A stretch of 64,000 nucleotides of DNA from Dehalococcoidia bacterium (lineage in GTDB: Bacteria; Chloroflexota; Dehalococcoidia; Lucifugimonadales; UBA3495). The stretch spans positions 804,412 through 868,411 of the forward strand of contig OZ240220.1 of NCBI GenBank assembly GCA_965197655.1. Direction: 5' to 3'. Shown here piece by piece: positions 4,297-42,056 of this stretch. The notes below the pieces were generated by a model, which was given only the letters and a program-made list of their open reading frames with translations, did not search any database and had not been told where the DNA came from. Made by a program: the position numbers and the translations under genes. Numbering within the stretch: the stretch's first letter is position 1; each line of letters begins with the position of its first letter.

Positions 4297-4343
4297 TCCA
4301 TGTATTATATGCCTTAAACTAGCTTGAGGGTGGGCACGTTATT

Positions 4344-5306: not shown

Positions 5307-5344
5307 TCGCCTCCGGCCAAAGTCCGATTATCCTGCAGTACGCG

Positions 5345-7229: not shown

Positions 7230-7239
7230 GAGAGGTAAA

Positions 7240-9735: not shown

Positions 9736-9797
9736 CCGTTTTGGTTATACTAACCCGCCTCAGGAATACCCATTTATCGCCAGGCTCCTCGGGTCTG

Positions 9798-10574
9798 TTA
9801 GAACAGGGACTTGGACTGGCCGCCGTCCACGTTGATGCAGGCCCCGGTTATCAGGTCGGCCCGGTCTGAGGCGAGGAAGGCCACCGTTTCGGCTATCGGT
9901 TCCGGCCAGCCAAACCGGCCCATGGGCAGGTTGCGGTTGATAAACTCGGACACCACTTCCGGCGGCTGGGTATTCTGGAACCGCTCCCAGGTGCTGCCGG
10001 GGAAGTCAATGGAGCCGGGGGCCACGCAGTTGACCAGTACACCGTGGGGCGCCATCTGCAACGCCAGGTGCTTGGAAAAGGCGATCAACCCTGCCTTGCC
10101 GGTCATGTAATCTATCGAGCCACCGTGTTCCCGTCCGTAGATTGAGGAAATGTTGATTATCCGACCCCAGCCCTGATCCTTCATGTGCGGCAAGGCCAAC
10201 GCGGTCAGGTGTACCGCGCTGAACAGGTTGACCTCCAGGCCGTCCCTGAATTGGGCCATGCTGGTCTCCTCAAACAGAGTCGAACCGCGGCGGCCCCCCA
10301 CGTTGTTGACCAGGATGTCCGGGTCGCCCAGGCCGGCGACGGTCTCCTCGTAGAAACGAACGGCCTGCGCCTCCTCGGTCACATCCGCCGGCGTCCCCTG
10401 AACTCGATAACCCAGCCCGGCCAACTCGGCCACCGAGTTGTTGAGTTGAGTCTCGTCCCTGGCGCAGATGGCTATTTGGCAACCTTCCCGCGCCAGGGCC
10501 TCGGCAATCTGCCGGCCCAGGCCCCGGCTGCCTCCGGTAATCATCGCTGTTTTGCCGTTCAATCCCAGGTCCAT
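9798..10574 (-). CDS. SDR family oxidoreductase
   Basis: TGGSRGLG cofactor motif and a YMTGK active-site region (YxxxK). The start is set at the internal Met (MDLGLNGKTAMITGG). Confidence 0.85.
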   Translation of the reverse strand: MDLGLNGKTAMITGGSRGLGRQIAEALAREGCQIAICARDETQLNNSVAELAGLGYRVQGTPADVTEEAQAVRFYEETVAGLGDPDILVNNVGGRRGSTLFEETSMAQFRDGLEVNLFSAVHLTALALPHMKDQGWGRIINISSIYGREHGGSIDYMTGKAGLIAFSKHLALQMAPHGVLVNCVAPGSIDFPGSTWERFQNTQPPEVVSEFINRNLPMGRFGWPEPIAETVAFLASDRADLITGACINVDGGQSKSLF

Positions 10575-12268: not shown

Positions 12269-12314
12269 GGTATTCAAACATGGATAGACCGGATTTCCGG
12301 CCCATCCGTCTAAG

Positions 12315-12466
12315 AAACCTCTGAATAAGTCCGTGACTCGTGATGTTTACACTTATCCGTCGTTCCTGCGCCGGCAGGAACCTAAAACGTTACGTACAGA
12401 GGTTCCTGCTTTCGCAGGAACGACGGGTGAAGGCGCTAGTGTTCAATGACTTATTTAGAGTATCCC
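12315..12466. repeat. PAL-1 element, CTCTGAATAAGTC outer module
   Basis: The core is 12356..12426. Outer arms are AACCTCTGAATAAGTC / GACTTATTTAGAGTATCC. Confidence 0.85.
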
Positions 12467-12516
12467 TAAGTTATACAAGTTGGGCCGATAAAGGAGTATT
12501 TCCTGGCAACCCCTCC

Positions 12517-12979: not shown

Positions 12980-13110
12980 GGGCAATCGCACTAGGATTGA
13001 AAGCTATCCGTCGTTCCTGCGAAAGCAGGAACCTAAAGTGTTGCGGACAGAGGTTCCTGCTTTCGCAGGAACGACGGGAAAGGGGAATCTGCCATCACGT
13101 GCGATAGTCC
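12980..13110. repeat. PAL-1 element, GGGCAATCGCA outer module
   Basis: The core is 13008..13077. Outer arms are GGGCAATCGCA / TGCGATAGTCC. Confidence 0.85.
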
Positions 13111-13266
13111 TGGCAGAAAGGCAACTTTGCAATACTCCGAGTCGCTGCGTCTCTGTGTGAAAATGGGCAAATTGTTCAGCCGTTGAGCCGGCTTTACCAA
13201 TGGCTTATACTTACCCGTATTCCCCGCCGGCGAAGGTCGGCCATCAACTCCCCTGAGGAGGCGGTT

Positions 13267-14349
13267 ATGCGCTTGGGTTACTTTACTATGCCCCTCCATC
13301 CGCCCGGCTCCGACATTTCGGAAACCATGGAGTCCGACCTGGTGCAGCTGGAAACCCTGGACCGGCTGGGCTACCGGGAGGCCTGGATTGGCGAGCATTT
13401 CACTACGGTCTGGGAGAACATACCCGCCCCCGACCAGTTCATCGCTGCGGCCCTGCCCCGTACCAAAGACATCATTTTCGGTACCGGCGTCACCTGTATG
13501 CCCAACCACGACCCCTTTATGATTGCCCACCGGGTCGCCCAGTTGGATAACTTGGCCCGGGGCCGGTTCTACTGGGGCGTCGGTTCCGGCGGCTTCCCCG
13601 GCGACTTTGAGGTGTTTGGAGTTGACCCTTCCGAGGGCGCTCACCGGGGAATGTCCCGGGAAATGATCGAGCTGATCCTGAAAATGTGGGAAGACCCCCA
13701 GCCGGGCGAATACCAACATCCCTTCTGGAAGTTCGTCATACCTGAGCCGGTGCCCGAAATCGGCCTGCAATTTCATGTGAAGCCCTACCAGAAACCTCAT
13801 CCGCCCATCGGAGTGGCCGGCGTCTCCCCCAACTCGGATACCCTGATTCTGGCCGGCGAGCGGGGCTGGCTCCCCCTCAGCATCAACCTGGTGCCGCCGG
13901 TGACCTTGAAGAGCCATTGGGATGCGGTGGAATTGGGTGCGAGTAAGTCCGGGCGCACTCCTGACCGCTCCGAATGGCGTATTGCCCGTGAAATCTACGT
14001 GGCGGAAACCACCGAGCAGGCCCGTGAAGAAGTCCTGGGAGGCACCATCGGGCGGGACTTTCGGCAGTATTTCATACCTTTGATGAAGTACGTCAACGGC
14101 ACCGGCTTGTTCAAGATCGACCCGGAAATGCCCGACGAAGCGGTTACGCCCGAATACCTGGTGGACAACGTCTGGATCGTGGGCAGTCCCGACGACGTGA
14201 CCGAGAAAATTCGGCAGATGCACCGGGATGTGGGCGGTTTTGGCGTCCTGCTGGCCATGGGCCACGAGTGGCAGCCGGAGGAAAGCTGGGTCAACTCGGT
14301 GACTTCTCTGGCCAAGGATGTTATGCCCCGGCTGGCCGACCTAAACTAG
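13267..14349 (+). CDS. LLM-class flavin-dependent oxidoreductase, paralog 2
   Basis: MRLGYFTMPLHPPG... WIGEHF ... GVGSGG. The ATG at 13267 is preceded by GAGGAGG. Confidence 0.85.
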   Translation: MRLGYFTMPLHPPGSDISETMESDLVQLETLDRLGYREAWIGEHFTTVWENIPAPDQFIAAALPRTKDIIFGTGVTCMPNHDPFMIAHRVAQLDNLARGRFYWGVGSGGFPGDFEVFGVDPSEGAHRGMSREMIELILKMWEDPQPGEYQHPFWKFVIPEPVPEIGLQFHVKPYQKPHPPIGVAGVSPNSDTLILAGERGWLPLSINLVPPVTLKSHWDAVELGASKSGRTPDRSEWRIAREIYVAETTEQAREEVLGGTIGRDFRQYFIPLMKYVNGTGLFKIDPEMPDEAVTPEYLVDNVWIVGSPDDVTEKIRQMHRDVGGFGVLLAMGHEWQPEESWVNSVTSLAKDVMPRLADLN

Positions 14350-16201: not shown

Positions 16202-16336
16202 GGGCTATTGCATTTGGATTGGAGGCTATCCGTCGTTCCTGCGAAAGCAGGAACCTGGAATATTGCAGACAAAGGTCCCTGCTTTCGCAGGAACGACGGG
16301 AGAAGGGCCTTTACCGTCAAGTACGGTTGCCGGGGC
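16202..16336. repeat. PAL-1 element (right outer arm degraded)
   Basis: The left half is identical to that of the copy at 61562. The core is 16230..16298. Confidence 0.8.
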
Positions 16337-17176: not shown

Positions 17177-17286
17177 ATTCTTGCCCCCTTTATTTTAACC
17201 CCGTCGGTCATTGTAGGATGTCCTTTTGGAAGGATTGTAACCTGCGCCGGATTAGAGTCAAGGGCGGTGACCGGCAAGGGTTAATA

Positions 17287-17415
17287 GGGCTATCGCACGT
17301 GATGGCAGATTCCCCTTTCCCGTCGTTCCTGCGCAGGCAGGACCTAAAATGTTACGGACAGAGGTTCCTGCTTTCGCAGGAACGACGGATAACTTTCAAT
17401 CCTAGTGCGGTAGCC
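17287..17415. repeat. PAL-1 element, GGGCTATCGCA module, inverted relative to 12980..13110
   Basis: GGGCTATCGCACGTGATGGCAGATTCCCCTTTCCCGTCGTTCC ... CGACGGATAACTTTCAATCCTAGTGCGGTAGCCC. Confidence 0.85.
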
Positions 17416-17523
17416 CCGGCCAGAGGCAAGCTCATCAATTGACCCTGCTGCCCGCTGCGAATAGAATGTTCCGGCCCGGATGTAGGAAGAACTGGGCAGA
17501 ATGAGGACGTATTTGCCTGCCGG

Positions 17524-22869: not shown

Positions 22870-22906
22870 TGGTAAACTCCTTCAAATCATTTTTGCCGTT
22901 AGCTAA

Positions 22907-23059
22907 GGATACTCTGAATAAGTCATTGAACACTAGCGCCTTCACCCGTCGTTCCTGCGCCGGCAGGAACCTCTGTACGTAACATTTTAGGTTCCTGCCG
23001 GCGCAGGAACGACAGATAAGTGTAAACATCACGAGTCACGGACTTATTCAGAGGTTTCC
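22907..23059. repeat. PAL-1 element, CTCTGAATAAGTC module (inverted relative to 12315..12466)
   Basis: GGATACTCTGAATAAGTC ... GACTTATTCAGAGGTTTCC. Confidence 0.85.
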
Positions 23060-23199
23060 TAACACTTAACTAGACTAGCAAACTTGAGTACAAGCGCACA
23101 ATGGGCAACTGTCAGTAAGATGCCCTACCCGATTTCGGGTAGGGCATTCAATCAAGGGAATCCATAAACCTCTGGTGGCACCGGACGCTTACTGTTAGG

Positions 23200-24798
23200 T
23201 CAGGCTACCAGACTGCTCCCCTCACCCTTAACAAAGTCGGCGGTGCGCAGGGCCAGGGCCTGAATCGTGGTGGTGGGGTTGATGCAAGCGCCGGTGGTGA
23301 AAATGCTGCCGTCAATAATCAGCAGGTTGGGTACGTCATGGGCGCGGCCCCAACGGTCCACTACCGAATTGCTGGGGTCGTCTCCCATTCGTGCCGTGCC
23401 CAGCAGGTGCCAGCCGGCATTGCGCCGCAGGTGGGAGGGGAAGGTCTGCTTGGCGCCGGCCGCCTCCAATACCTCCCGCGCCCGCTCCACGCCGTGGTCC
23501 AGCATTTTGTGGGTATTCTCACTAACGGTGTACTGAATCCTGGGCGCCGGTATGCCGTGGGAGTCAGTTAATACCGGGTCGAGGGTTACCTGGTTGCTTT
23601 CTTCGGGCAGGTCCTCGGTCATTATGGTTACGCTGATGGTGTGGCCGAAGCGCTCGCCGAAAACCCGGTGGTGGTCCTGGCCCCAAGGCGCCACCTCTTG
23701 CTGGATACCTCCCAGGGCGGTGGGCAGTGGTGAGCCGGTGACGCCGGTAATTTGCAGGTCGTAGCCGCGGACAAAGCCCCGGCTCAGGTCGGTCTCGTAG
23801 AACTCCTGGCTTAGCATAGTGCTGCCCCGGGGGCCGGAGTCGGCGCCGAGCCATTCCTCAAAGATGCCCATCACCCCGCCGCAGGGGTGGTGCATCAGGT
23901 TCCTGCCCACCAGTCCGCTGCTGTTAGCTAAACCCTGGGGGAAGAGGGCGGACTTGGAGTTGAGCAGCAGGCGGGCGGTGCCGATTCCGTTGCCGGCCAT
24001 CACTACGACCCGCGCCCGCTGTTCTTGCAGGTTGCCCTCGGCATCATAGTAAAGGGCGCCGGAGGCCCGGCCCGATTTGTCCACCAGGATTTCCCGAACC
24101 CGGGCGTAGGTCTTGAGGCGGGCGCCCAGGCGCAGGGCCTTGGGCCAGTAAATGATGTCGGCGCTGGACATAGAGCGAAGGGCGCCGCCAGTGTCCGGCT
24201 GCCGTCCGTCGTATTCCACCGAGGAGATAGCGTTATCCGATGACCACCAGTGCCAGCCCAGCTTGTTGAAGCCCTTGGCCAGCAGTTCCCCGCCAATGCC
24301 GATGGGCAGAGGCGGCGTGGGCCGTTGTGGCTTGGGCGGGTAAGCCGGATCGCCGGCTAGGCCGGATACACCATTCATCCGGTCGTTCAGGTCGTAGTAG
24401 GGTTCCAGTTCGGCGTAGGTCATCGGCCAGTCGTCGGCCACGCCGTCCTGGGACTTGAGGCGAAAGTCGGAGGGATGGAAGCGGGGGAAATGGGAACCCC
24501 AGTGGATGGTGCTGCCGCCGACGGCGTTGTACATCAGCGGCGAAATGGGAGTTTCTGCCTCGTTTACGGGGTAATCTTCGGGGAGGCCGCGGAAATTCGG
24601 GTTGGAATGAAAGTCGTTCTGCCAGCGCACCTGGGCGTCCGGCTCGCTGGTGGGAAAGGCGTCCAGGGGGACCCAGCCGCCCTGTTCCAGGCAGACCACC
24701 TTGATGCCGGCCTGGGCCAGGCTCCAGGTAAATGCCCCACCGGAGGCGCCCGCGCCGATTACCAGAACATCCGCAACTTCGTGTCGATTTACCATCAT
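23200..24798 (-). CDS. GMC family oxidoreductase
   Basis: N-terminal FAD motif DVLVIGAGASGG and a C-terminal GMC region (HLLGTARMG...). Confidence 0.9.
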   Translation of the reverse strand: MMVNRHEVADVLVIGAGASGGAFTWSLAQAGIKVVCLEQGGWVPLDAFPTSEPDAQVRWQNDFHSNPNFRGLPEDYPVNEAETPISPLMYNAVGGSTIHWGSHFPRFHPSDFRLKSQDGVADDWPMTYAELEPYYDLNDRMNGVSGLAGDPAYPPKPQRPTPPLPIGIGGELLAKGFNKLGWHWWSSDNAISSVEYDGRQPDTGGALRSMSSADIIYWPKALRLGARLKTYARVREILVDKSGRASGALYYDAEGNLQEQRARVVVMAGNGIGTARLLLNSKSALFPQGLANSSGLVGRNLMHHPCGGVMGIFEEWLGADSGPRGSTMLSQEFYETDLSRGFVRGYDLQITGVTGSPLPTALGGIQQEVAPWGQDHHRVFGERFGHTISVTIMTEDLPEESNQVTLDPVLTDSHGIPAPRIQYTVSENTHKMLDHGVERAREVLEAAGAKQTFPSHLRRNAGWHLLGTARMGDDPSNSVVDRWGRAHDVPNLLIIDGSIFTTGACINPTTTIQALALRTADFVKGEGSSLVA

Positions 24799-24887: not shown

Positions 24888-26084
24888 TTACCGCCGCTCA
24901 AACACTGCCGCCATGCCCTGGCCGCCGCCGACGCACATGGTTTCCAGGCCATACTGCACACCCCGTCGCTCCATTTCGTGGAGCAGGGTGGTCAGGATGC
25001 GGGCGCCGGTGGCGGCAATGGGGTGGCCCAGGGAGATGCCGGAGCCGTTGACGTTCAGCTTGTCCTCGTTGGGCAGCTTCCACTCCCGCAGCACGGACAG
25101 TACCTGGGCGGCAAAAGCCTCGTTCAGTTCAATCAGGTCCATGTCTTCCAGGGACATACCGATTTTGGGCATTAGCTTGTTGACCGACGGCACCGGGCCG
25201 ATTCCCATGTAGGCCGGGTGGCAGCCGGTTACGGCCCACCCCTTCAGGTAGCCCATCGGCGTCAACCCCAATTCTTCCAGCTTGTCCTCGGCCACTACCA
25301 GACAAACGGAAGCGGCGTCGTTCTGGCTGCTGGCGTTGCCGGCGGTGACCGTCCCGTTGGGCATCACCGGGCGGAGCCGGCCCAGGGCTTCGATAGAGGT
25401 ATCAGCCCGCGGGTTTTCGTCCTTGTTGAAATCTACCGGGTCGCCTCGCCGTTGGGGGATGGGCACTCCCACGATTTCCTGGTCGAACTTGCCCGACTCA
25501 ACGGCGGCAATCGCCCGCTGGTGGCTGCGCAGAGCATATTCGTCCTGCTCTTCCCGGGAAATTTCGTACTGTTTCGCCAGGTTCTCTGCGGTTTCTACCA
25601 TGCCGGAGATATAGCCGAAACGCTCCTCCGGGGAGATGGTTTCCCGGGCGCGCACCAGTCGGTCGTGCATCGTCAGCGAGCCGAACCGGCTGCCCCAGCG
25701 GGACTCGTTGACATAATACTCGGCGTTGCTCATGCTCTCCACGCCGCCGGCGATAACCGCATCGGCGTTCTCCGTCTGTATGAGCATCGCGGCGTTGAGG
25801 ATGGCTTGCAGGCCGGAAGAGCAGCGGCGGTCCAACTGGTAGCCGGGGACTTCAATGGGAAGTTCGGCCTTCAGTCCGGCCAACCGGCCAATGGCCGGGT
25901 TCTCGCCGCTGGGATAGCCCAGGCCCAGAATAACGTCGTCCACCCTGGCCGGCTCAATACCGCTGCGCTCGACCAACTCCTTGATAACCAGGGAACTGAG
26001 GTCGGCGGCGGAAACACCCCGCAGCGCCCCGCCGAAATTGCCTACGGCAGTCCTGACCGGTGATACTATTGCGACTCCTCGCAT
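24888..26084 (-). CDS. acetyl-CoA C-acyltransferase (thiolase)
   Basis: Active-site CSSGLQAI, NGSGISLGHPIAATG and CVGGGQGMA. Confidence 0.9.
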   Translation of the reverse strand: MRGVAIVSPVRTAVGNFGGALRGVSAADLSSLVIKELVERSGIEPARVDDVILGLGYPSGENPAIGRLAGLKAELPIEVPGYQLDRRCSSGLQAILNAAMLIQTENADAVIAGGVESMSNAEYYVNESRWGSRFGSLTMHDRLVRARETISPEERFGYISGMVETAENLAKQYEISREEQDEYALRSHQRAIAAVESGKFDQEIVGVPIPQRRGDPVDFNKDENPRADTSIEALGRLRPVMPNGTVTAGNASSQNDAASVCLVVAEDKLEELGLTPMGYLKGWAVTGCHPAYMGIGPVPSVNKLMPKIGMSLEDMDLIELNEAFAAQVLSVLREWKLPNEDKLNVNGSGISLGHPIAATGARILTTLLHEMERRGVQYGLETMCVGGGQGMAAVFERR

Positions 26085-26257: not shown

Positions 26258-26330
26258 GGGGGTGTAGCTCAGTCGGGAGAGCACCTGCTTTGCAAGCAGG
26301 GGGTCAGGGGTTCGAATCCCCTCACCTCCA
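26258..26330 (+). tRNA. tRNA-Ala (anticodon UGC)
   Basis: GGGGGTGTAGCTCAGTCGGGAGAGCACCTGCTTTGCAAGCAGGGGGTCAGGGGTTCGAATCCCCTCACCTCCA folds as a cloverleaf. The anticodon loop is TTTGCAA, the G3:U70 Ala identity pair is present, and the sequence is followed by CCT rather than an encoded CCA. Confidence 0.92.
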
Positions 26331-26332
26331 CC
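26275..26332 (+). repeat. 58-bp direct repeat, copy 1 (within the intact tRNA-Ala; putative attL)
   Basis: Identical to 28377..28434 (GGGAGAGCACCTGCTTTGCAAGCAGGGGGTCAGGGGTTCGAATCCCCTCACCTCCACC). Confidence 0.9.
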
Positions 26333-26417
26333 TTTGTCGCTGAAACTTGTCATATCCAAAGACCAATGTAGTATTGGTCAAGGTGATTAGGCTTCTGCAA
26401 ATTTTCCTAACATCAAG

Positions 26418-27365
26418 GTGGTCATATTGGCTAGATTTTTCCTTACATCTTATACGGTGAGATTACGGCGTAAGAACTCTAGAGAGTACCTTCATCTGGA
26501 CAACTTTGCGAATAATCATGATTTTCTGGCGACGCTCACGACTTATCTGCGGGAACGCCAGGCCAATCGATCTATCAACGGTGAAACGCAGAAGCTGCTT
26601 GGGGTCCTCAATTACCAACAACAAGGTAGAACCATAAGCGGTAGATTTGAATCTGGGGAGTACGGATACGAAGCTGAGTTATACGATGTGCAAGCTGACG
26701 CGATGGCATATCAGCGGACAATGTACGACGCAGAAGTAATCCCCTTTTATTTCCGTGCTCAATTCCCTAACCAGCAAGATGAAGGAGTGTTGGTACTGCA
26801 AAGGAGAGGACAGTTAGGCGTGAAGTTAGCCCTGATGCAAGATTTCTCAAATTACTTTGGTAATTTGTACCCAAATCTAATGCTTGAGATCAATCCGCTA
26901 GTTCCCCAGCAATTGATCGACCAGCTTATGGGAAATGGGGAACTTACAAAGGTTAGGTTTGTGAGGTTTGATATTCCCAATGACATTACTGATGCCTACG
27001 AAGGCGGTGGGCACGTAGAGCAGTTGGGGCACGCTGAGTTGGTGATACTTGCAAGGAGAAATAGAAGGATCCCTCTATTGGATAGAGTCCGTGATGTCCT
27101 GGCGCGAAGAAGGCAAGTAAATGAGATGGTTGAGATCCAAGATTTTGATTACGACACCGTCAAGGTGGAGATACAACTTGGTAGTAGTAAGAGAACAGTG
27201 GACCTTTCTGACGTCATGAACCTAAGGTCAAATTATGACGTTACAGATGACTTGGAAATAGGAGCAGATGGTCATCCTTTATTCGATAGTATTGACGGCG
27301 TGGCTAGAGAACTCTTGGAGGAGTTGATGCAGGGGATTGGTGCCGGTGAGAATAATGCTGGATAA
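26418..27365 (+). CDS. hypothetical soluble protein (islet cassette gene 1)
   Basis: 315-aa ORF with low GC and no family recognised. An alternative TTG start at 26427 follows AAGGTGG. Its stop overlaps the start of the next gene. Confidence 0.6.
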   Translation: MVILARFFLTSYTVRLRRKNSREYLHLDNFANNHDFLATLTTYLRERQANRSINGETQKLLGVLNYQQQGRTISGRFESGEYGYEAELYDVQADAMAYQRTMYDAEVIPFYFRAQFPNQQDEGVLVLQRRGQLGVKLALMQDFSNYFGNLYPNLMLEINPLVPQQLIDQLMGNGELTKVRFVRFDIPNDITDAYEGGGHVEQLGHAELVILARRNRRIPLLDRVRDVLARRRQVNEMVEIQDFDYDTVKVEIQLGSSKRTVDLSDVMNLRSNYDVTDDLEIGADGHPLFDSIDGVARELLEELMQGIGAGENNAG

Positions 27366-27870
27366 GATCAACATATCAGGGATTATTCGCGACCATCTCG
27401 GAACACTGCGAGACTATCCTCAAGACAAGAGAAGTTCAGTGGATTTCATCGTATTTTTCGGCACCCCGGCAATAATGACTGGTTTGTTGCTAAAGTTCTA
27501 TGGTGGCCTTGAAAAAGACTTGATCACTATTGTCTCTACTTCCTTGTCGATTTTTGCTGCCCTGCTCTTTAACCTTTTGCTGCTGGCCTACGATCTATCA
27601 CGAAGGACTATTGGCCCAAATGAAAACCCAGACGGACTAAGACAAAGGCTAATTAAAGAAGTCATAAGTAATATATCCTTCGCTATTTTAGTAGCACTTG
27701 TAGCTATTGCTTCAGTGCTTGCCGTTGTGGTAATGGATTGTTCCGAGGTCGCCACGTTTGCTTTAAGCGGTGTGGTTTTCTTCCTGGTTTCTTTATTCTT
27801 TCTTACCCTCTTAATGTTACTGAAGAGAGTACATGTGCTCTTAAAGGGAGAGGTTGAAAAGGGTGCATAG
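27356..27870 (+). CDS. hypothetical 4-TM membrane protein (islet cassette gene 2)
   Basis: The ATG at 27356 overlaps the upstream stop (ATGCTGGATAA). There are four hydrophobic helices arranged as two helical hairpins. Confidence 0.6.
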
Positions 27871-27992
27871 AGGGAATGCCCTTAGCTTGAAAGCAGCTTT
27901 GCTTTAGAAAGCTGTGCTAAAGAAGTGGTCATATCAAGAAATTCTATTTAGAACAGACATCCGGGTCAGGTTTAGTATCAGGATTCCCCCAA

Positions 27993-28295
27993 ATGCGCGT
28001 CCTAACCCCAATCAAAGCAACCGCTAACAGCGGGGCCCGCGTCATGCTTCCCCCGAACTCATCGAAGCAGTGGGTGCCTTCAACCAGTAACTGGTCAACG
28101 CCGGTATTATGCAGGGCGGCGAGGGTCTTAGGCCATCGTCCCAGGGCAAGCGGTTGGCCTTTGACGGGGCAAGTCGCACCGTCATTGACGGCCCCTTTCC
28201 CGCCACCGCCGAGTTGGAGGTCGGCTTCTGGCTATGGGAAGTTAGGGGCCCTGAGTAAGGCCGTCGAGTGGGTGAAGCGCTGCCCTAACTTCTGA
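27993..28295 (+). pseudogene. decayed YciI/DGPF-type (YCII-related) gene
   Basis: The family-like sequence is spread over two frames. It begins MRVLTPIKATANSGARVM, shifts to ELIEAVGAFNQ*LVNAGIMQGGEGLRPSSQGKRLAFDGASRTVIDGPFPATAELEVGFWLWEV, then shifts back to AVEWVKRCPNF*. That is at least 2 frameshifts, 1 internal stop and a truncated C-terminus. Confidence 0.6.
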
Positions 28296-28376
28296 ACTCA
28301 GGGAAAAGGAAGCACGAATCTGGTAGAATGTAGCGGGTAACTGAGGGGTCCCTTTTCTCCCGATAATGGATTCAGA

Positions 28377-28434
28377 GGGAGAGCACCTGCTTTGCAAGCA
28401 GGGGGTCAGGGGTTCGAATCCCCTCACCTCCACC
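28377..28434 (+). repeat. 58-bp direct repeat, copy 2 (orphan 3' part of tRNA-Ala; putative attR)
   Basis: Identical to 26275..26332. This copy is followed by A, giving an encoded CCA. There is no tRNA 5' half upstream. Confidence 0.9.
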
Positions 28435-28540
28435 ACAAATCTGTGGTTGGACACCCGGGTTGCGCTACCAGGACTGGAAGACCGGTCTAGCTGCGAAACG
28501 TACCGGACTCCCCCCTCAAACTTAACAGCAGGAGGAAACG

Positions 28541-29566
28541 ATGCCTTACTTAATGTACGTTGCTCTGCAAGAGGATGACCAGATTTCGGTTTTTGACCTA
28601 GACCCGCAAACTGGAAAGCTATCTCCTCAGGTTGAGGTATCCGTACCCGGCGGGCCATTCACCCTGGCAATCAGCCCGGACCGGAAGTTTCTTTACGCGG
28701 GCTGCCGCGACACGCCTCAGATAACCAGCTTCGAGGTTGACCAGGCCAGCGGGAGACTAACCCGGAACGGGAATGTGTCGCTGGAAGCTAATCCCACTTT
28801 CATTTCCACTGACCGCCGCGGCAAGTTTGTGCTGTCGGCCTATTACCAGGGCGCCCATGTGGGCGTGCATCCGATAGGAGATGATGGCTCGGTGGGCGGC
28901 CAACCTATTGAATGGCTGGAAACGGCCACCGGCGCCCACGCAATGCAGGCTGACCCGACCAATACCTACGCTTTTGTGCCGCATATTGCCGGCAATGGCC
29001 CCAACGCCATCTTTCAGTTCAGGTTCGACCAGGACACCGGCCAGATAACCCCGAATACGCCAGCCAGAGTGGAGTTGGAAGAGTTCTTAGGCCCGCGCCA
29101 CTTTTGCTTTCACCCGTCCCTGGACATCCTCTACTTTTCCAACGAGCAGGGTTGCAGCGTGAGCGGCTATAACCTGGATACTGCCTCGGGAACGCTTTCT
29201 CTCTATCAGACCATAACCACCCTGCCCGAGGAGGGTTTCGCGGAGCGGAATAGCTGCTCCCAGATTCAGGTCTCGGCGTCGGGAAGGTTCCTTTACGCTC
29301 CCAACCGGGGACATAACAGCATCGCCTGCTTTTCGGTAGATACGGCCACGGGACAATTGACTTCCAACGGCATTGTTGCCTCTGAACCGATACCCAACGC
29401 CTTGTGCCTGGACCCCCAGGAGAAGTTTCTCTTCTCCGCCGGGCAGGAATCGGGCCGCATGGCATCCTTTAGCATCAACCCGGACACCGGGCAGTTGACG
29501 CCGTTGGAGACTTATCCCCTGGGCAACCGGCCGGCTTGGGTGTCGATTATAGAATTGCCCGGATAA
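28541..29566 (+). CDS. lactonase family 7-bladed beta-propeller protein (6-phosphogluconolactonase-like)
   Basis: MPYLMYVALQEDDQISVFDLDPQTGKL... with repeated FLYA/NRGHNSI blade motifs. Confidence 0.85.
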   Translation: MPYLMYVALQEDDQISVFDLDPQTGKLSPQVEVSVPGGPFTLAISPDRKFLYAGCRDTPQITSFEVDQASGRLTRNGNVSLEANPTFISTDRRGKFVLSAYYQGAHVGVHPIGDDGSVGGQPIEWLETATGAHAMQADPTNTYAFVPHIAGNGPNAIFQFRFDQDTGQITPNTPARVELEEFLGPRHFCFHPSLDILYFSNEQGCSVSGYNLDTASGTLSLYQTITTLPEEGFAERNSCSQIQVSASGRFLYAPNRGHNSIACFSVDTATGQLTSNGIVASEPIPNALCLDPQEKFLFSAGQESGRMASFSINPDTGQLTPLETYPLGNRPAWVSIIELPG

Positions 29567-29755
29567 CCGGCACGGCGTACAGGGTGAACCAGCCGCTGGG
29601 AAGTTGGAAGTTTGTAATACAACACCACTTATGATTAAGGAATCGGGTTAGGTAGCCAACTCAGGGAGGCAATTCTGGCGACTACGGCAGCTTCGCGGAA
29701 TGTTAGCTACGAGGCGCAGGAGAGTCCGCCTTTACTGGCTTCGCTCGGCTATGGC

Positions 29756-31418
29756 TTGCAGTTCAGCCTCATCGCCTCGGCCACCCTGCTGGTAACGCCG
29801 GTGATTGTGGCTAAAGCGTCAGGGAGGGACGATTCTTACCTGGTGTGGATGGTGTTCGCCTCGCTGATTGTCGTGGGCGTGTCCACTTTGATTCAGGTGC
29901 GACGGTTGGGGCCGGTTGGGGCCGGAGCCGGTTTGCCCATGTTTACGGCTGCCTTCTCCATCCCCTTCTGCATCACGGCGCTGGTGGACGGGGGGCCGGC
30001 AACCCTGACGACTTTGGTGCTCGTCTCGGCGGCGGCTCAACTCGTCATCTCCAAATGGCTGTTCATTCTGCGGAGAATCGTCACGCCAACCGTGGGCGGC
30101 ACCGTGATGATGATACTTTCCATAACCCTGGCTTCCGTGGTCTTTGGTCTGTTGGACGGGGCAGCGAAAGCCGAGCCGGTGGCGGCGCCTTTGACTGCGC
30201 TGGCTACCCTGGGCATTGTCGCCGCGCTGGCCCTGCGCGGGTCGGCGCTGCTGCGTCTCTGGGGCCGGTAATCGGCATTGTCGGCGGTTGCCTGGTTGCT
30301 GCCGCACTCGGAATCTACAACATCGCCCCGGCGCTGCAAGCCCCTTGGGTGGGACTGCCCAGCGCCTGGCCCGGTTTGGGACGCGACTTCGGCATTCCCT
30401 TCTGGACGCTGCTTCCGGCCTTCCTTTTCCTCGGTGTAATCATCTCCATACAAGCCAACGGCGAAGCCATTGCCTTGCAGCGGGTCGCCTGGCGGGATGA
30501 CCGGGCCGTGGACTTTCGGCAGGTTCAGCGGACGCTGTTGGGCGCCGGCGTGTCTAATCTGTTGGCCGGCCTGGCCGGGGCGGTGCCCAACATCATCAAT
30601 CCGGGCATCGTGTCATTTACGCAGCTAACCGGCGTGGCGGCGCGCCGGGTTGGCTACTGCATCGGCTGCGCCTTTATCGTGGGGGCCTTTCTGCCCAAGG
30701 TGTCCGGGCTGCTCAGCACCATACCCGGGCCGGTAATGACCGGATACCTCATCCTGGTGACGGGAACCCTGTTTGTTGACGGTGCGCGGACCATCATCCA
30801 AGCCGAACCGAACCGGCAAAAGATTGTGATTGCGGGAGTCTGTTTCTGGATTGGCGCGGCTTTCCAGTTCGGGCTGTTCACCCTGCCCAACCTCGGCGCA
30901 GTGGTGGGAGCGTTGTTCAAGAGCGGTATAACCACCGGGGGATTCGCCGCAATAATGATGATTCTATATCTGGAGCTTACCAACCCGCGCCGTATGCGTT
31001 TTCAAGCCCGGCTCCACATAGACGCCTTGCCGGAACTCAACGAGTTCATCGCCCGGTTCGCCAACCGCCGCGGCTGGGAGCTGCGATGCAAGAGCGGCTG
31101 AGCGCAGTTGCCGAGGAAACGCTCCTGACCCTGGCGCCGCTTAATCTGGAAGGAGACTTGGAGGAAGAAGACGCTGAACAAATCGGCCGCCTGGTAGTCT
31201 TGGCCTCCAGCGAAGGCCCGATCGCCGACCTGGAGTTTATCGGCGGGGGCAATGAAGAGAACATCGAGGACCAGGTCCGGCAACTTCAGCAGCACGCCCC
31301 GGAATCCCCGGTAGAGAATGAAATCTCCCTCCGCCTGCTGCGGAGCTTCGCCTTGTCGGTGCGGCACCAGCAGTATCAAGGCACTGATATAATTGCAGTC
31401 CGGGTTGCGCCGCCGTAA
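29756..31418 (+). pseudogene. NCS2 (xanthine/uracil) family permease with C-terminal anti-sigma/HATPase-like domain, split over three frames
   Basis: Permease-like sequence continues from ORF 29756..30271 into ORF 29845..31101 (...ALLRLWG|PVIGIVGGCLVAAALG...), with a 1-nt shift near 30260-30270. It appears to continue again into ORF 31086..31418 (...FANRRGW|GAAMQERLSAVAEETLLTL...). The N-terminal homology region (VSYEAQESPPLLASLGYGLQF) has no ATG/GTG/TTG start upstream of it. Confidence 0.55.
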
Positions 31419-33184: not shown

Positions 33185-34059
33185 GTGAGGCCGGTATCGT
33201 CGCCAGCTACAGCTATGCGGCCCGATACCACTACACCGATGTGGTGGTGCAAAACGATAATTTCCTGAGGTTGTCGGCTTGTGCCGATACTTATCAAACG
33301 CCCGTGACCGCCTCGGTCATGACCTCGCCCGTCAGCCGTCCCGCCCAATTCCGGGATGCCTACGGCAACATCACCCATCGGGTCAGGGTAACCACTCCTC
33401 ACCAGGAGTTAATCATTCTGGCCATTGGGGTTGTGCGGATAGAACTGCCGCCGGCCTTGCCCGCGGAGGTAGCGATGCGCTCCCTGGTGTTTGACCAGTC
33501 GGTTAATGAGTTTCTGACGCCCACCCCCCTGGTGGACCCGGAAAAGCTGGCCGCTATAGCTCGTGACATCACCTGGGGAGCTGAAGGTCTGTTGGAGTCG
33601 GTGACGCAGATTACCGACTGGGTTTACCGAAATATCAACTACGTGAAGCAAAGCACGACGGTGGCAACTACCGCCGAACACGTCCTGGCCTCTGGCATGG
33701 GTGTTTGCCAGGACAAGGCCCACCTGGCAATGGGATTCCTGAAGGCGCTGGGAATCCCGGCGCGGTACGTGAGTGGCTTGTTGGCGACCCAGGTGGGAGA
33801 AACCCATGCCTGGTTGGAGTTCCTGCATCCCCAACTGGGCTGGCTGCCGGCAGACCCTACCCGGGGCCAGGCGTTGGCCGGAAATGGAGATTTGATTAAG
33901 TTCGCCGTGGGCCGGGACTATACCCAGGCGGCCCCGGTGGAAGGCACCTTTGTCTCCCGGGGTTCCGGTTGGCTGGATACCGCCCTGGCCCAAGTCCAGC
34001 TTGAGGCTGATCTGGTGTCTTTTGACGATGCTCTCAGGTTGATTGAAAATCGGTTCTAA
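33157..34059 (+). CDS. transglutaminase family protein (N-terminal Bact_transglu_N-like plus transglutaminase core)
   Basis: Catalytic-Cys context GMGVCQDKAHLAMGFLKALGIPARYVSG and a downstream HAWLEF. It overlaps the ATP-grasp gene by 28 nt. Confidence 0.85.
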   Translation: MQTNLGGSISEAGIVASYSYAARYHYTDVVVQNDNFLRLSACADTYQTPVTASVMTSPVSRPAQFRDAYGNITHRVRVTTPHQELIILAIGVVRIELPPALPAEVAMRSLVFDQSVNEFLTPTPLVDPEKLAAIARDITWGAEGLLESVTQITDWVYRNINYVKQSTTVATTAEHVLASGMGVCQDKAHLAMGFLKALGIPARYVSGLLATQVGETHAWLEFLHPQLGWLPADPTRGQALAGNGDLIKFAVGRDYTQAAPVEGTFVSRGSGWLDTALAQVQLEADLVSFDDALRLIENRF

Positions 34060-34215
34060 GGATACTCTGAATAAGTCGTACTTGTGCTGTTCACCCCCTA
34101 CTCGTCGTTCCTGCGAAAGCAGGAACCTCTGTACGTAACGTTTTAGGTTCCTGCCTGCGCAGGAACGACAGATAAGTGTAAACATCACGAGTCATGGACT
34201 TATTCAGAGGTTTCC
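34060..34215. repeat. PAL-1 element, CTCTGAATAAGTC module
   Basis: It starts directly after the transglutaminase stop codon and is nearly identical to 22907..23059. Confidence 0.85.
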
Positions 34216-34238
34216 TAAATCGGTGAAGGTGTGTTGCT

Positions 34239-34766: not shown

Positions 34767-34784
34767 CAGCCGGGCAGACTGCCT

Positions 34785-34897
34785 ATCCGTCATTCCTGCG
34801 AAAGCAGGAATCCAGGGGCGTCAGGGGCAGAGGTTCCTGCCGGCGCAGGAACGACGGGTGAAGGCATTAGAGCTTAATGACTTATTCAGGGTATCCC
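34785..34897. repeat. PAL-1 element, chimeric (spacer as in 8972 copy, right arm of CTCTGAATAAGTC module, left outer arm absent)
   Basis: The spacer GGCGTCAGGGGCAGAGG is shared with the 8972..9118 copy. The right flank is GACTTATTCAGGGTATCCC. Confidence 0.75.
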
Positions 34898-34922
34898 CTA
34901 ACATTCTATAAAGGGATGGTTT

Positions 34923-35612: not shown

Positions 35613-35659
35613 CCATCAGGCATCGGAAGACCCTTGCCAATTTTATCCTTGTTATCCCA

Positions 35660-35790
35660 GGGCTATCGCACTAGAATTGAAAGCTATCCGTCGTTCCTGC
35701 GCAAGCAGGAACCCCTATCCGCAACATTTTAGGTTCCTGCTTTCGCAGGAACGACGAGAAAGGGGAACCTGCCATCACGTGCGATAGCCC
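35660..35790. repeat. PAL-1 element, GGGCTATCGCA module
   Basis: GGGCTATCGCACTAGAATTGAAAGCTATCCGTCG ... GCCATCACGTGCGATAGCCC. Confidence 0.85.
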
Positions 35791-35915
35791 TCCTTCTTCT
35801 CCCCCTCCTCATTGTACTAATGCTATAGTGTCAGCAACGCCGCCGGCCCCGCTGGCGATTTCTCTTGGTCGTGGGCCGGTATTCCGGTCTGACATCTTTG
35901 GCACAAAGGAACTAA

Positions 35916-37163
35916 ATGGCCCAACTGTTGGCACGTTTTAAGGCAGCTACCCCCCGACTCCCGGCCTTTCAGGCCTTGCGTTACGCTAATTTCCGCTGGT
36001 TCTGGCTCAGCACCGCCGGCCAGGCAATGGCCCAGGGGATGCAGTTTCTAATCCTCGGCTGGCTGGTGCTCGCCCTTACCGACTCAGTTTCCCAACTAGG
36101 GCTGACCGCATTCTTCTATGGCATACCGAACCTGACTCTCGTGCTGTTTGGCGGCATTTTTGCCGACCGCATTAACCGCCAAAAACTCCTCGTAGTATCC
36201 CAAACCGGCGTAACCATAATCATTTTTGCTGTTGCCACCCTGGCTATAACCAATCTGGTGGCCGTCTGGCAGATTTTCGCTGCCTCTTTTCTGCTGGGGA
36301 CGCTTCACGCAATCAATATGCCTACCCGTCTCGCAATGGTGGTAAACCTGGTGGATCGGGATGACATAATGAACGCCGTGGTGCTTAATGCGGCGGTGAT
36401 GAACACCGGGCGGATAGTCGGTCCGGCCCTGGCTGGCGGAATCATCGAGCTGTTGGGCATCGGCCCAGCCCTTTACATCAATGCCGGTTGCTACCTGATG
36501 GCGGCCGGTTGCGTCCTGCTTATCCGCAACTTCGGCCAGGACCGGCCGGCCCGAAAAACGGATATTTTCCGAGACTTGTTGACCGGGCTGGACTACTTTA
36601 TAAAGACGCCGGTGGCGTTTACCGTCATCGGGGTAGGGTTCGCTTTCGGGTTCTTTGGGATGCCCCACGTCCAGGTGATGCCCGCTTTTGCCAAGGAAGT
36701 GCTGGGGGTGGGCGCCGCGGAAGCCGGGCTACTTATCACTGCCGCCGGGTTGGGGTCGTTGCTGGCTAACGTCTTTCTGGCCTTGCTGGGCAACTTCCGC
36801 CGCAAGAACTTGCTGCTAATCGGCTCGGTCTTGCTCTTTGAGCTCAGCCTGTTCCTGTTTGCCTGGTCGCAGTGGTTCTGGCTTTCCTGGGGCATCTTGC
36901 TTTTCGTCGGTGCGGGGAGTATCGGTTACATCTCCCTGGGCACCACGGTGCTGCAACTAACCGTGCCATCGGAGTTGCAGGGTCGGGTGATGAGCTTGTG
37001 GTATGTGTCGGCCGGCCTGATGTTCATTGGCTCCCTGCCAATGGCGGTAGTGGCGGACTTCGTCAGTTGGCCCCTGGCCCTGGCTGGCGGCGCAGTAGTA
37101 AGTTTTGCTTTTACCCTCTGGCTGGCAATCTGGCGCCCGACCCTGCGCCGATTGCAGATTTAG
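35916..37163 (+). CDS. MFS transporter (12 TM, EntS/MFS_3-like)
   Basis: N-terminal FQALRYANFRWFWLSTAGQAMAQGMQFLILGWLV and hydrophobic throughout. Confidence 0.85.
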   Translation: MAQLLARFKAATPRLPAFQALRYANFRWFWLSTAGQAMAQGMQFLILGWLVLALTDSVSQLGLTAFFYGIPNLTLVLFGGIFADRINRQKLLVVSQTGVTIIIFAVATLAITNLVAVWQIFAASFLLGTLHAINMPTRLAMVVNLVDRDDIMNAVVLNAAVMNTGRIVGPALAGGIIELLGIGPALYINAGCYLMAAGCVLLIRNFGQDRPARKTDIFRDLLTGLDYFIKTPVAFTVIGVGFAFGFFGMPHVQVMPAFAKEVLGVGAAEAGLLITAAGLGSLLANVFLALLGNFRRKNLLLIGSVLLFELSLFLFAWSQWFWLSWGILLFVGAGSIGYISLGTTVLQLTVPSELQGRVMSLWYVSAGLMFIGSLPMAVVADFVSWPLALAGGAVVSFAFTLWLAIWRPTLRRLQI

Positions 37164-37313
37164 GAATACTCTGATTAAGTCATTAAACTCTGGCGCTTTC
37201 ACCCGTCGTTCCTGCGAAAGCAGGAACCTCAAACGTTGTGGACAGAGGTTCCTGCTTGCGCAGGAACGACGGGTAGGTGTAAACAGCACAAGCCACGGAC
37301 TCATTCAGAGGTT
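37163..37313. repeat. PAL-1 element, CTCTGA(A/T)TAAGTC module
   Basis: It starts at the MFS stop codon and lies between convergent genes. Confidence 0.85.
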
Positions 37314-38984: not shown

Positions 38985-39132
38985 CGCTGTCAGGGCTATC
39001 GCATTAGGCCGAAGAAGAGAACCCCTCGTTCCTGCGAAAGCAGGAACCTCTGTTCTCAAGGTTGTGTTCCTGCCTTCGCAGGAACGACGTATAGTGCCCG
39101 TTTTGGTTCATGCGATAGCCCTGATGCGGCTG
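38985..39132. repeat. PAL-1 element, GGGCTATCGCA module with extended outer IR
   Basis: GCCGCTGTCAGGGCTATCGCA ... TGCGATAGCCCTGATGCGGC. Confidence 0.85.
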
Positions 39133-40448: not shown

Positions 40449-40672
40449 AGGGGTGGGTTTCAAACCATTGGTTCCAACTAATTGGTCATTAGAAACTAAT
40501 GAATTGTCCTACAAGCGTCTTGCTCGTAGGGTGACCCTTACCCGTCGTTCCTGCGTAGGCAGGAACCTCAAACCTTGAGGCCAAAGGTTCCTGCCTACGC
40601 AGGAACGACGGATCACTTGCTTCTCCGTTGAGCAGTCGAATTAGTTGAAGCGGATGGTTTTAAACCCGCCCT
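40449..40672. repeat. PAL-1 element with GGGTGGGTTTCAAACC/GGTTCCAACTAAT outer module
   Basis: Same architecture as 9533..9735. The core is 40541..40610. Confidence 0.85.
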
Positions 40673-40823: not shown

Positions 40824-42056
40824 TTGCCCATGTTCGTAATGAGGTTTACCGAGCGCGCTTACTTTAACTATACTGAGGATGACGTTAAGAACAGTCCCAA
40901 CGGCGCCCACCGGGTCACTTTCTCCAACTCCCATTTTGACCCGGAAGTTGCCGCCAACCAATACAACTATTACCTGGATGAGTGGCAATACTGCGAAGAA
41001 GTGGGGTTTGACGGGATGATGCTCAACGAGCACCACAGCACCCCCACCAGCCTGGGGGCGGCAATGAACCTGGAAGCCGCCATCCTGGCCCGCATCACCA
41101 AGAAGCCCAAAATCGTCCTGATGGGCAACCCGCTGCCCATCCACGAAAACCCCCTCCGGTTGGCCGAGGAACTGGCCGAGATTGACTGCATCTCCCGGGG
41201 CCGCCTGGTATCCGGCTTTGTCCGGGGCGGTGGCACTGAAAGCTGGGCCACCAACACCAACCCGGTTTACAATCGGGAGCGGTTCGAGGAGGCCCATGAC
41301 CTGCTAATCAAGACCTGGACCACACCCGGCCCCTTCCGCTGGGAGGGCAAGCACTACCACTTCCGGGCGGTTAATCCCTTCCAGGTGCCTTTGCAAAAGC
41401 CCCACCCGCCCGTCTGGATTCCGGGCACCGGCAGCGCGGAGACGGCGGCTTGGTGCGCCGAGCGTCATTACCCCTACTTCTACCTGGGCATCGTTCCCTA
41501 CACCTTCAGCTATATGCAGGACATTTACCGGGACGCCGCCCGAATGAACGGGTACGAGGCTGGGCCGCAGAACTTTGGCTATATGCTGCCCATCCACGTT
41601 CAGGATACGGACGAAAAGGCGAAAGTTGAGGGTAGAGGCTTCCTGGAGGCCCTGGTCGGCGTTGGCCGGGTGCCGATGCCCCGCGAGTATTCCTTCCCGC
41701 CCGGCTATAACCGGGCCACCCGGGACGAATGGGCCGACGACGCGCGGGAAGCCAAGGTGCGGGAAGCCCGGGCCAGCGACCCCTTCCGCACCGGCCCGGT
41801 CACCGATGAGACCTTCCAGGCGATGATTGACAACAATCGTATGGTAATCGGCAGCCCGGACACGGTGATTCGCAAGGTGCGGGAAGTGCTGGAAGCAGTG
41901 CGCCCCGGCATCCTGGCCGTCTGGACCAATGACGGCTCCATCTCTCACGAGGCTACCATGCGTTGCTTGCAGTTGATGGACCAGGAAGTCCTACCCGCCA
42001 TTCGCGAAATTGGCGATGAGTTGGAACTGCCCGGGCCTTTTGACGTTGCCCCCTAA
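40824..42056 (+). CDS. LLM-class flavin-dependent oxidoreductase, paralog 3
   Basis: MLNEHH, RLVSGFVRGGG and the overall LLM pattern. Confidence 0.85.
   Translation: MPMFVMRFTERAYFNYTEDDVKNSPNGAHRVTFSNSHFDPEVAANQYNYYLDEWQYCEEVGFDGMMLNEHHSTPTSLGAAMNLEAAILARITKKPKIVLMGNPLPIHENPLRLAEELAEIDCISRGRLVSGFVRGGGTESWATNTNPVYNRERFEEAHDLLIKTWTTPGPFRWEGKHYHFRAVNPFQVPLQKPHPPVWIPGTGSAETAAWCAERHYPYFYLGIVPYTFSYMQDIYRDAARMNGYEAGPQNFGYMLPIHVQDTDEKAKVEGRGFLEALVGVGRVPMPREYSFPPGYNRATRDEWADDAREAKVREARASDPFRTGPVTDETFQAMIDNNRMVIGSPDTVIRKVREVLEAVRPGILAVWTNDGSISHEATMRCLQLMDQEVLPAIREIGDELELPGPFDVAP

Follow-up and report, generated by a model that had tools for sequence, protein, structure and literature searches.

Low-GC (guanine-plus-cytosine) genomic islands of Dehalococcoides lie between the 3' end of a small stable RNA gene, ssrA, and a direct repeat of that end, and about half of them lack any integrase (PMC3146451). 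Fifteen of these ssrA islands, with ssrA 3' repeats and no serine recombinase module, have been proposed to be cis mobilizable (McMurdie et al. 2011, PMC3146451). Degenerate tRNA islands and the cis-mobilizable elements (CIMEs) of Streptococcus likewise keep attL- and attR-like repeats and have no integration or transfer genes (PMC5704250). CIMEs are thought to be deletion derivatives of integrative elements that move only with a helper (PMC5704250; bioRxiv 10.1101/2020.12.28.424599), and the islands of Prochlorococcus contain tycheposon remnants, with degenerate elements and isolated partial tRNAs, the latter being traces of earlier integrations at hotspots (bioRxiv 10.1101/2020.12.28.424599). 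Here we describe an islet at positions 26333 to 28376 of a 64,000-nucleotide stretch (the window) of contig OZ240220.1 (positions 804,412 to 868,411; assembly GCA_965197655.1) from a Dehalococcoidia bacterium. It is likely that this islet was gained by horizontal transfer and became inserted where the gene for tRNA-Ala(UGC) ends, forming an integrase-less CIME-like, or degenerate, tRNA island with a candidate RexAB-like cargo. The island type is already known, and the locus is a new example of it, at tRNA-Ala in uncultured Dehalococcoidia.

The evidence begins with the two ends of the islet, which consist of the following features.

26258-26330, forward strand: intact body of tRNA-Ala(UGC), 73 nt, with G3:U70 (Rfam RF00005, 73.5 bits)
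26275-26332, forward strand: left, attL-like copy of a 58-nt direct repeat (tRNA positions 18 to 73 plus CC)
28377-28435, forward strand: orphan tRNA-Ala 3' fragment, attR-like (an A follows the 58-nt repeat and completes the encoded CCA)

The sole tRNA gene that ARAGORN detects in the window is that for tRNA-Ala(UGC) (26258 to 26332). Its last 58 nt (26275 to 26332) recur at 28377 to 28434 with 100% identity and a spacing of 2,102 nt, so that the islet is flanked by an intact tRNA gene on the left and by a second copy of that gene's 3' part on the right. The final 24 nt of the repeat occur exactly twice in the 64 kb, even when 3 mismatches are allowed, and were never found in 100 shuffles. 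The second copy lacks the 5' half of the tRNA. ARAGORN, Rfam, and the repeat search thereby agree with an earlier interpretation made from the sequence alone (the sequence-only reading), which had recognized a 58-bp duplicate of the tRNA-Ala 3' end with no 5' half. The two copies differ in what follows them, as had also been read: the intact tRNA is followed by CC (26331 to 26332) and then T, so that CCA is incompletely encoded (CCT), whereas the orphan copy is completed to CCA. No further tRNA-Ala 3' fragment and no tandem array of such fragments was found in the window or in the relatives searched. The orphan copy was also considered as a possible tmRNA and rejected, its score of 26.8 bits against the Rfam tmRNA model (gathering score, 47) reflecting merely a tRNA-like 3' end.

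Comparison with relatives indicates which end is native. The genes flanking the islet are the following.

23200-24798, beyond the thiolase gene: GMC oxidoreductase gene (Pfam)
24888-26084, reverse strand: thiolase gene, native left flank (Pfam; approximately 82% nucleotide synteny with loci L102 and L104)
28436-29566, forward strand: native-type right flank, consisting of a 105-nt leader and a lactonase gene (28541-29566)

Left-side relatives were sought by scanning metagenome contigs for an exact 41-nt tRNA pattern, which yielded 120 loci. Two of these (L102 and L104) carry the GMC oxidoreductase-thiolase-tRNA flank at ∼82% nucleotide identity, with a tRNA-Ala(UGC) that is 100% identical to that of the window; this tRNA ends in an encoded CCA and is followed by unrelated GC-rich DNA, with neither islet nor lactonase. 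On the right, the lactonase is a 7-bladed beta-propeller (Pfam PF10282; E = 3e-70) whose closest relatives, in Dehalococcoidia metagenome-assembled genomes (MAGs), share 87 to 90% amino acid identity with it; an exact look-up of the lactonase matched no record. The right flank is 83 to 87% identical at the nucleotide level to eight loci (L005 to L011 and L031), and the homology starts at the orphan tRNA piece, or within its last ∼5 to 30 nt, and stops ∼200 nt past the lactonase stop codon. In these relatives, the lactonase is preceded by a tRNA-Ala gene or a remnant of one, whose 3' end can be aligned with the orphan copy (28377 to 28435). In L007, the gene that precedes the same leader and lactonase, at a distance of 106 nt, is an intact tRNA-Ala(GGC) with CCA; in L010 and L011, an intact tRNA-Ala(CGC) with CCA is found at this distance from the lactonase. 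This is exactly the position of the orphan in the window. In the other five loci (L005, L006, L008, L009, and L031), only a decayed tRNA 3' remnant of ∼20 to 25 nt precedes the lactonase, and there is no tRNA within 6 kb upstream.

CCA is encoded in 28 of 29 tRNA genes of related Dehalococcoidia loci, the sequence-only reading having called for a check of the other tRNAs in the genome itself. Together with the CCA in the relatives just described, this indicates that the CCT junction is derived and represents the foreign side, while the orphan CCA and the leader behind it are native type. The proposal that the orphan fragment is the original chromosomal 3' end, and that the functional tRNA was completed by element DNA, is therefore supported by L102 and L104 on the left, by L007, L010, and L011 on the right, and by the prevalence of encoded CCA.

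A separate observation concerns the extent of the right-hand homology. A block from 28435 to 29770, comprising the tRNA-Ala 3' end, the leader, the lactonase gene, and the first ∼35 codons of a permease gene, is 83 to 87% identical in L005 to L011 and L031 (at about positions 5870 to 7240), and on both sides of it the DNA of these loci is unrelated to that of the window. Taking all of these loci together, the block abuts three tRNA-Ala isoacceptors (UGC, GGC, and CGC), and the permease of the relatives is cut off after ∼35 codons.

Between the two repeat copies, the islet contains two intact, translationally coupled genes in a low-GC cassette, followed by a decayed gene. These are the open reading frames (ORFs) and other features inside it.

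26333-26426, forward strand: leader of the low-GC cassette (consensus scan and reading of the sequence)
26427-27365, forward strand: ORF1, 312 amino acids (aa), with a TTG start conserved in homologues (alignments)
27355-27870, forward strand: ORF2, 171 aa, overlapping ORF1 by 11 nt
27871-27985, forward strand: tail of the low-GC cassette, with a 7-bp hairpin at 27894-27914; the atypical composition stops at about 27985
27993-28295, forward strand: YCII/YciI-family pseudogene with host-like GC content (three-frame translation)

The composition of the cassette is foreign to its surroundings. Positions 26333 to 27985 have a GC content of 43.8%, compared with 58.9 ± 2.6% in other 1.65-kb windows of the stretch, the lowest of which has 50.5% (z = −5.8), and their tetranucleotide distance from the rest of the window has a z score of 12.2. 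These calculations, proposed with the sequence-only reading, upheld it for this part of the islet. Within the leader, a promoter-like TTGTCA-16-TAGTAT (26347 to 26374) overlaps the 15-nt palindrome CCAATGTAGTATTGG (26363 to 26377), and a ribosome-binding site, AAGGTGG, can be read ahead of ORF1; the promoter is a candidate, as sites in the consensus promoter scan were no commoner than expected by chance. The description of the content as two genes and a decayed YciI-like gene also held, since the latter, after repair of its frames, matches the YCII family (PF03795; E = 4.7e-8). It has suffered two frame changes and one in-frame TAA and has lost ∼40 C-terminal codons relative to full-length homologues of 137 to 140 aa (best identity, 73%), and the loss of those codons shows that DNA between the YCII gene and the orphan tRNA piece has been deleted.

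We infer the following course of events. The incoming DNA would itself have included 58 nt or more from the 3' part of tRNA-Ala. Recombination inside the shared 58 nt would have rebuilt a complete tRNA at the left, with element DNA after its CC (CCT), while the native 3' end would have been shifted to the right together with its CCA and the leader of the lactonase gene. The repeat copies are identical, and the crossover point cannot be placed within them. The agent would most likely have been a site-specific integrase targeting tRNA-Ala. This integrase would later have been deleted from the islet, as the truncated YCII gene suggests, or would have been supplied in trans by a larger element. 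With a recombinase gone or never aboard, the islet is CIME-like, having att-like repeats at both ends and no recombination or transfer genes between them.

Several observations weigh against this reconstruction. First, the last 390 bp of the islet (27986 to 28376) have a host-like GC content of 58.8%, so that the earlier description of the entire islet as low in GC applies to 26333 to 27985 only, and the flanking genes have ∼59 to 63% GC rather than the 65% then given; no homologue of this GC-rich part was found in any relative locus compared. Second, an empty site, with the tRNA leading directly to the lactonase, had been expected in relatives. Each junction does occur unoccupied, the left in L102 and L104 and the right in L007, L010, and L011, but in separate relatives, and the exact joint arrangement thiolase-tRNA-Ala(UGC)-lactonase was found in none of them. 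Third, the lactonase elsewhere abuts the GGC or CGC isoacceptors and not UGC, which suggests that the lactonase block may itself have moved. Fourth, a scan of 30 window ORFs, among them every ORF from 12.5 to 40.4 kb, found no recombinase, and so none within ∼13 kb of the islet, and ORF1, ORF2, and the YCII pseudogene have no recombinase domain, so that the islet has no integrase of its own; the absence of a recombinase from the islet had already been remarked and was confirmed by these domain searches. Finally, the orphan copy has no change in 58 nt although it lies beside a broken YCII gene. Either the islet had decayed before its arrival, which would argue against loss of an integrase in situ, or gene conversion has kept the repeat identical. 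Arrival in a decayed state, by way of a helper integrase or by homologous (Campbell-type) insertion, is mildly favored, with the reservation that the two YCII frameshifts may be assembly errors.

The same two genes occur elsewhere in the phylum. The pair formed by ORF1 and ORF2 is present in nine other Chloroflexota loci, with a GC content of 44 to 50% in hosts of 56 to 64%, and no recombinase was found near the cassette in any Chloroflexota locus within 4 to 10 kb or up to the ends of the shorter contigs. In L001 and L002, a 1,698-bp unit holds only the two genes, and the 3' end of the adjacent MFS transporter gene recurs on its two sides as a 59-nt repeat with 78% identity (copies at 9782 to 9840 and 11480 to 11538 of L001). 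In L085, the islet is 3.1 kb long, and the repeat on its two sides (175 nt; 91% identity) comprises the 3' end of an ornithine carbamoyltransferase gene and DNA downstream of it (copies at 3069 to 3242 and 6303 to 6476). Five cassette loci have no flanking repeat, and a comparison of the islets found no conserved ends or terminal repeats, only the ribosome-binding site and the TTG start being kept. Locus L213 is collinear with L001 at 89 to 93% identity, with the cassette itself at 92%; it lacks the left repeat and an ABC transporter operon, and its ORF1 is fragmented. This collinearity implies that the insertion is old and vertically inherited and has still not ameliorated. In L003, an 11-bp tandem repeat array (consensus, approximately CCGTCGCTGAT) was observed at 6448 to 6560, in a GC-rich spacer between a thiolase gene and the cassette.

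Phage 21 and e14, at icd of Escherichia coli, are integrative elements that give their target protein gene a substitute 3' end and encode their own tyrosine integrase. The islets of L085 and L001 resemble them in being bounded by imperfect 3'-end duplications (175 nt at 91% and 59 nt at 78%) with the adjacent gene intact but differ in having no tyrosine integrase. Two other kinds of mobile unit were considered and rejected: an integron gene cassette, as there are no attC, integron integrase, or conserved cassette ends and the bounding repeats are host gene 3' ends, and a transposon, as there are no inverted repeats and no transposase.

The absence of a recombinase domain near the cassette in all 10 Chloroflexota loci (the window and the nine others) is what would be seen if no integrase had ever been aboard. 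Circular or circularized donor DNA with the cassette and a tRNA-Ala 3' end could have entered by a single RecA-dependent, Campbell-type crossover that duplicated the 58 nt, and sequence alone does not separate such homologous insertion from site-specific insertion. The duplicated 3' ends of different genes, with variable lengths (59 nt in L001/L002 and 175 nt in L085), the lack of conserved terminal sequences, and the perfect identity of the repeat in the window are all in line with it. We nevertheless consider this route unlikely: 58 nt is near the minimum for efficient RecA recombination, the target gene is always kept intact at its 3' end, as with site-specific elements, a serine recombinase element lies at the equivalent tRNA-Ala/lactonase junction in L008, and the five cassette loci without any flanking repeat are left unexplained by it. 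The age and vertical inheritance of the L001-type islet also mean that its repeat tells little about how insertion took place.

It is highly improbable that the islet is an artefact of metagenome assembly, produced by a chimeric join or by the collapse of a repeat. The sequence probably comes from a MAG-type assembly of long reads, the record of ORF1 comes from one contig of 4.1 Mb, and at least one frameshifted gene of the window may reflect a homopolymer error, namely, a permease gene interrupted near 30250. A long-read assembler, however, would not be misled by a repeat of as little as 58 nt, and both junctions are biologically sensible, the left having an intact tRNA and the right a CCA and leader of native type; similar islets are present in independent assemblies, and the same islet is present in two samples (L001 and L002). 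The permease gene in question, of the xanthine/uracil family (29756 to 31101, downstream of the lactonase), is split over two frames and is either a real pseudogene or the product of a homopolymer error in long-read assembly. The split bears on the trustworthiness of the YCII frameshifts, both of which lie at short homopolymers and are possibly long-read assembly errors.

Returning to insertion at tRNA-Ala as the preferred interpretation, the islet comes from the same bacterial class as the ssrA islands of Dehalococcoides and differs from them in its particulars. Its target is tRNA-Ala rather than ssrA, its repeat is 58 nt rather than 20 bp, and at 2.1 kb it is far smaller; there is no tandem array in the window, and its cargo is a candidate defense pair rather than reductive dehalogenases. 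The combination that characterizes an ssrA island, with ssrA as target, the 20-bp repeat, and the DsiB module next to attL, is thus absent. The two systems are comparable in that ssrA is also an integration hotspot, whose occupant varies from strain to strain (PMC3146451). At the junction between tRNA-Ala and the lactonase, L008 has a 538-aa large serine recombinase (Resolvase, Recombinase, and Zn-ribbon domains; 3917 to 5533) that ends ∼330 nt before the tRNA remnant, L005 has a GmrSD_C protein and an SNF2 helicase to the left of the remnant, and the intact tRNA of L010 and L011 is preceded by an IS3 transposase. The similarity between L005 and L007 (95% identity) begins only at the last ∼21 nt of the tRNA and continues to the right, and that between L008 and L009 (96.6%) likewise begins only ∼220 nt upstream of the remnant. 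Judged by sequence comparison, the diversity of these occupants makes the tRNA-Ala/lactonase junction a hotspot for mobile and defense DNA in this clade, which adds tRNA-Ala in uncultured Dehalococcoidia as a hotspot comparable to ssrA. The recombinase of L008 resembles in size and domains the ∼540-aa serine recombinase integrase (DsiB) of complete ssrA islands, and its presence at an equivalent junction is a circumstantial hint of mobilization in trans. Unlike CIMEs, the islet carries a cargo whose other copies lie at the 3' ends of protein genes or have no repeats.

The cargo belongs to a family that is large and has no match in the protein family and defense libraries searched. Neither ORF1 nor ORF2 has a match in Pfam, NCBIfam, or PADLOC, and the PHROGs matches of ORF1 are only to families of unknown function. 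An initial metagenome scan with ORF1 gave no match, and a word-indexed search gave 19 relatives; a full hidden Markov model search gave 2,096 cluster representatives (50% identity) at E values of ≤1e-3, 713 of them at ≤1e-30. Among 139 diverse members of the ORF1 family, Pfam and PADLOC found no match in any, and a PDB sequence search with profiles of 19 and 139 sequences found nothing. These results point to a widespread family of gene pairs that is absent from present catalogues of domains and defense systems.

Structure prediction suggests a fold for ORF1. The AlphaFold2 model (predicted local distance difference test score [pLDDT], 77.6) was compared with PDB structures by Foldseek, and the top match was RexA of phage lambda (8twq; E = 4e-6; probability, 1.0), followed by RdgC of E. 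coli (2owl; E = 7e-4). RexA and RdgC are structural relatives that share a fold (PMC11077077). Among predicted viral structures (BFVD), the model matches uncharacterized proteins of tailed phages, ∼280 to 320 aa long, with template modeling (TM) scores of up to 0.59. On this modeling evidence, ORF1 is a candidate DNA-binding sensor with a RexA/RdgC-like fold. ORF2 has four long hydrophobic helices by hydropathy, and its homologues align with a mean column identity of 77%; a single-sequence AlphaFold2 model is all helical and of low confidence (pLDDT, 60), and a fold search with it came back empty. By analogy in size, topology, and gene order, and solely in these respects, ORF2 is RexB-like and a candidate membrane effector.

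The lambda RexAB system excludes superinfecting phage via membrane depolarization. The pair in the window resembles it in that a cytoplasmic protein of ∼300 aa, for which RexA and then RdgC are the best structural matches, is followed immediately by a small polytopic membrane protein of ∼150 to 170 aa. A gene of ∼170 to 210 aa stands directly after ORF1 in all 12 loci examined. The downstream partner was compared with ORF2 in five Chloroflexota loci, a phage, and a plasmid: it is 54 to 57% identical in the five Chloroflexota loci aligned, while a Clostridium plasmid (hhalign probability for the partner, 99%) and the Pseudomonas filamentous phage PfAC16 (L088; 98%) carry homologous pairs. An apparently archaeal contig (L214) has the same gene order, with the downstream gene known by order only. 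The PfAC16 pair (412 to 1883) lies at the left end beside a repressor and an excisionase and so resembles lambda rexAB in standing beside the repressor of a temperate (filamentous) phage. It is annotated merely as hypothetical proteins and is tractable for testing the function of the family.

A predicted RexA-fold protein with a polytopic partner would allow a simple scheme: ORF1 would bind DNA and sense infection and would activate ORF2, which would collapse the membrane potential and abort the infection, as in lambda RexAB. By this analogy we infer, with somewhat better than even confidence, that the pair is a RexAB-like exclusion or abortive infection system in which a DNA-binding sensor activates a membrane effector. 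Four results count against it. The TM scores of the ORF1 model against RexA are only 0.29 to 0.32, which would be expected if the two domains differ in orientation; hhalign gives a probability of <1% for the ORF1 profiles (19 and 139 sequences) against RexA and likewise of <1%, with no similarity, for the ORF2 profile against RexB; none of the 139 family members has a Pfam or PADLOC match; and most homologous loci lie outside recognizable defense islands. The pair also differs from lambda RexAB in having no adjacent repressor, prophage, or immunity region in the window and in belonging to a family that is large (2,096 clusters), reaches a plasmid and apparently an archaeon, and has no detectable resemblance to RexA or RexB at the level of sequences or profiles. 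The link to RexA is one of predicted fold and of architecture, not of family membership.

A role other than defense against phage is possible but doubtful. The pair could serve lysogeny or maintenance in the manner of a prophage module, cause addiction as toxin-antitoxin pairs do, or respond to membrane stress, and the fold would then denote only generic DNA binding. Such a role would suit the lack of a sequence-level link to RexA or RexB and of any PADLOC match, the location of most cassette loci among housekeeping genes, and the low confidence of the ORF2 model and its empty fold search; lambda RexA, moreover, affects the lysis-lysogeny switch without requiring RexB, and some RexA homologues are orphans (PMC11077077). 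It accounts less well for the strict pairing with a four-helix membrane protein in 12 of 12 loci (by gene order only in the archaeal L214), for the patchy spread across phyla in phage, plasmid, and islets, and for the position beside a repressor in a Pf prophage, which mirrors lambda rexAB. Two loci (L004 and L211) also lie inside clear defense islands, among genes for Eco57I-type restriction-modification, GmrSD, AAA_15/AAA_21, and toxin-antitoxin proteins. If phage exclusion is indeed the function, then Rex-type abortive infection, pairs of which occur in actinophages (PMC11077077), reaches beyond lambdoid phages and actinophages to Chloroflexota, a Pseudomonas aeruginosa Pf prophage, a plasmid, and possibly archaea.

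The RdgC-like fold raises the further idea that ORF1 itself mediates or assists insertion and that the cassette is a self-contained mobile unit targeting gene 3' ends. The minimal islet of L001/L002, with only the two genes between its repeats, the three different target genes, and the fold of a DNA-binding protein would all be compatible with this. We consider it very unlikely, since no catalytic recombinase or nuclease motif or domain was detected in ORF1, RexA and RdgC bind DNA nonspecifically and are not known to transfer strands (PMC11077077), conserved ends are absent from the islets, flanking repeats are missing in over half of the loci, and inheritance in the L001/L213 lineage has been stable and vertical.

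The least ordinary aspect of the locus is that recombinase-free minimal islets bounded by gene 3'-end duplications recur, and these duplications provide a handle on the movement of very small defense islets. A broader proposal, which we regard as quite improbable, is that a large RexAB-analogous defense family (at least 2,096 clusters) travels in Chloroflexota as low-GC, recombinase-free islets of 1.7 to 3 kb that enter gene 3' ends (those of tRNA-Ala, MFS transporter, and ornithine carbamoyltransferase genes, with duplications of 58 to 175 nt) by an undescribed route that would be helper dependent, homology driven, or assisted by the RdgC fold.

Other features of the window were recorded in addition. 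An intergenic palindromic repeat family has at least 16 sites in the 64 kb, in both orientations, with a core of ∼70 nt (…CGTCGTTCCTGCGCCGGCAGGAACC…GGTTCCTGCCGGCGCAGGAACGACAG…) and longest copies of ∼160 nt.

9017-9091, both orientations occurring in the family: palindromic repeat site 1
9591-9675: site 2
12311-12468: site 3
12980-13111: site 4
16202-16331: site 5
17286-17419: site 6
22903-23062: site 7
34056-34218: site 8
34784-34903: site 9
35657-35791: site 10
37160-37313: site 11
39021-39093: site 12
40534-40618: site 13
61562-61693: site 14
61831-61938: site 15
63465-63568: site 16

The family looks REP-like (repetitive extragenic palindromic) or MITE-like (miniature inverted-repeat transposable element). 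The islet contains no copy of it, as would suit DNA that arrived recently from a foreign source. GC content is also low, though less so, at a second spot (48.8% over 4001 to 5000), which encodes a LysR-type regulator (4344 to 5306). A 421-aa protein encoded at 53264 to 54529 has tubulin/FtsZ GTPase and CetZ_C domains (Pfam E values, 7e-22 and 2e-9), which is unusual in a Dehalococcoidia chromosome; CetZ-type tubulins are, to our knowledge, archaeal. Finally, the 64 kb contain four paralogues of luciferase-like (flavin-dependent) monooxygenases (11093 to 12268, 13183 to 14349, 40824 to 42056, and 48772 to 49821), which is consistent with a SAR202-type Dehalococcoidia genome with expanded families of oxidative enzymes.

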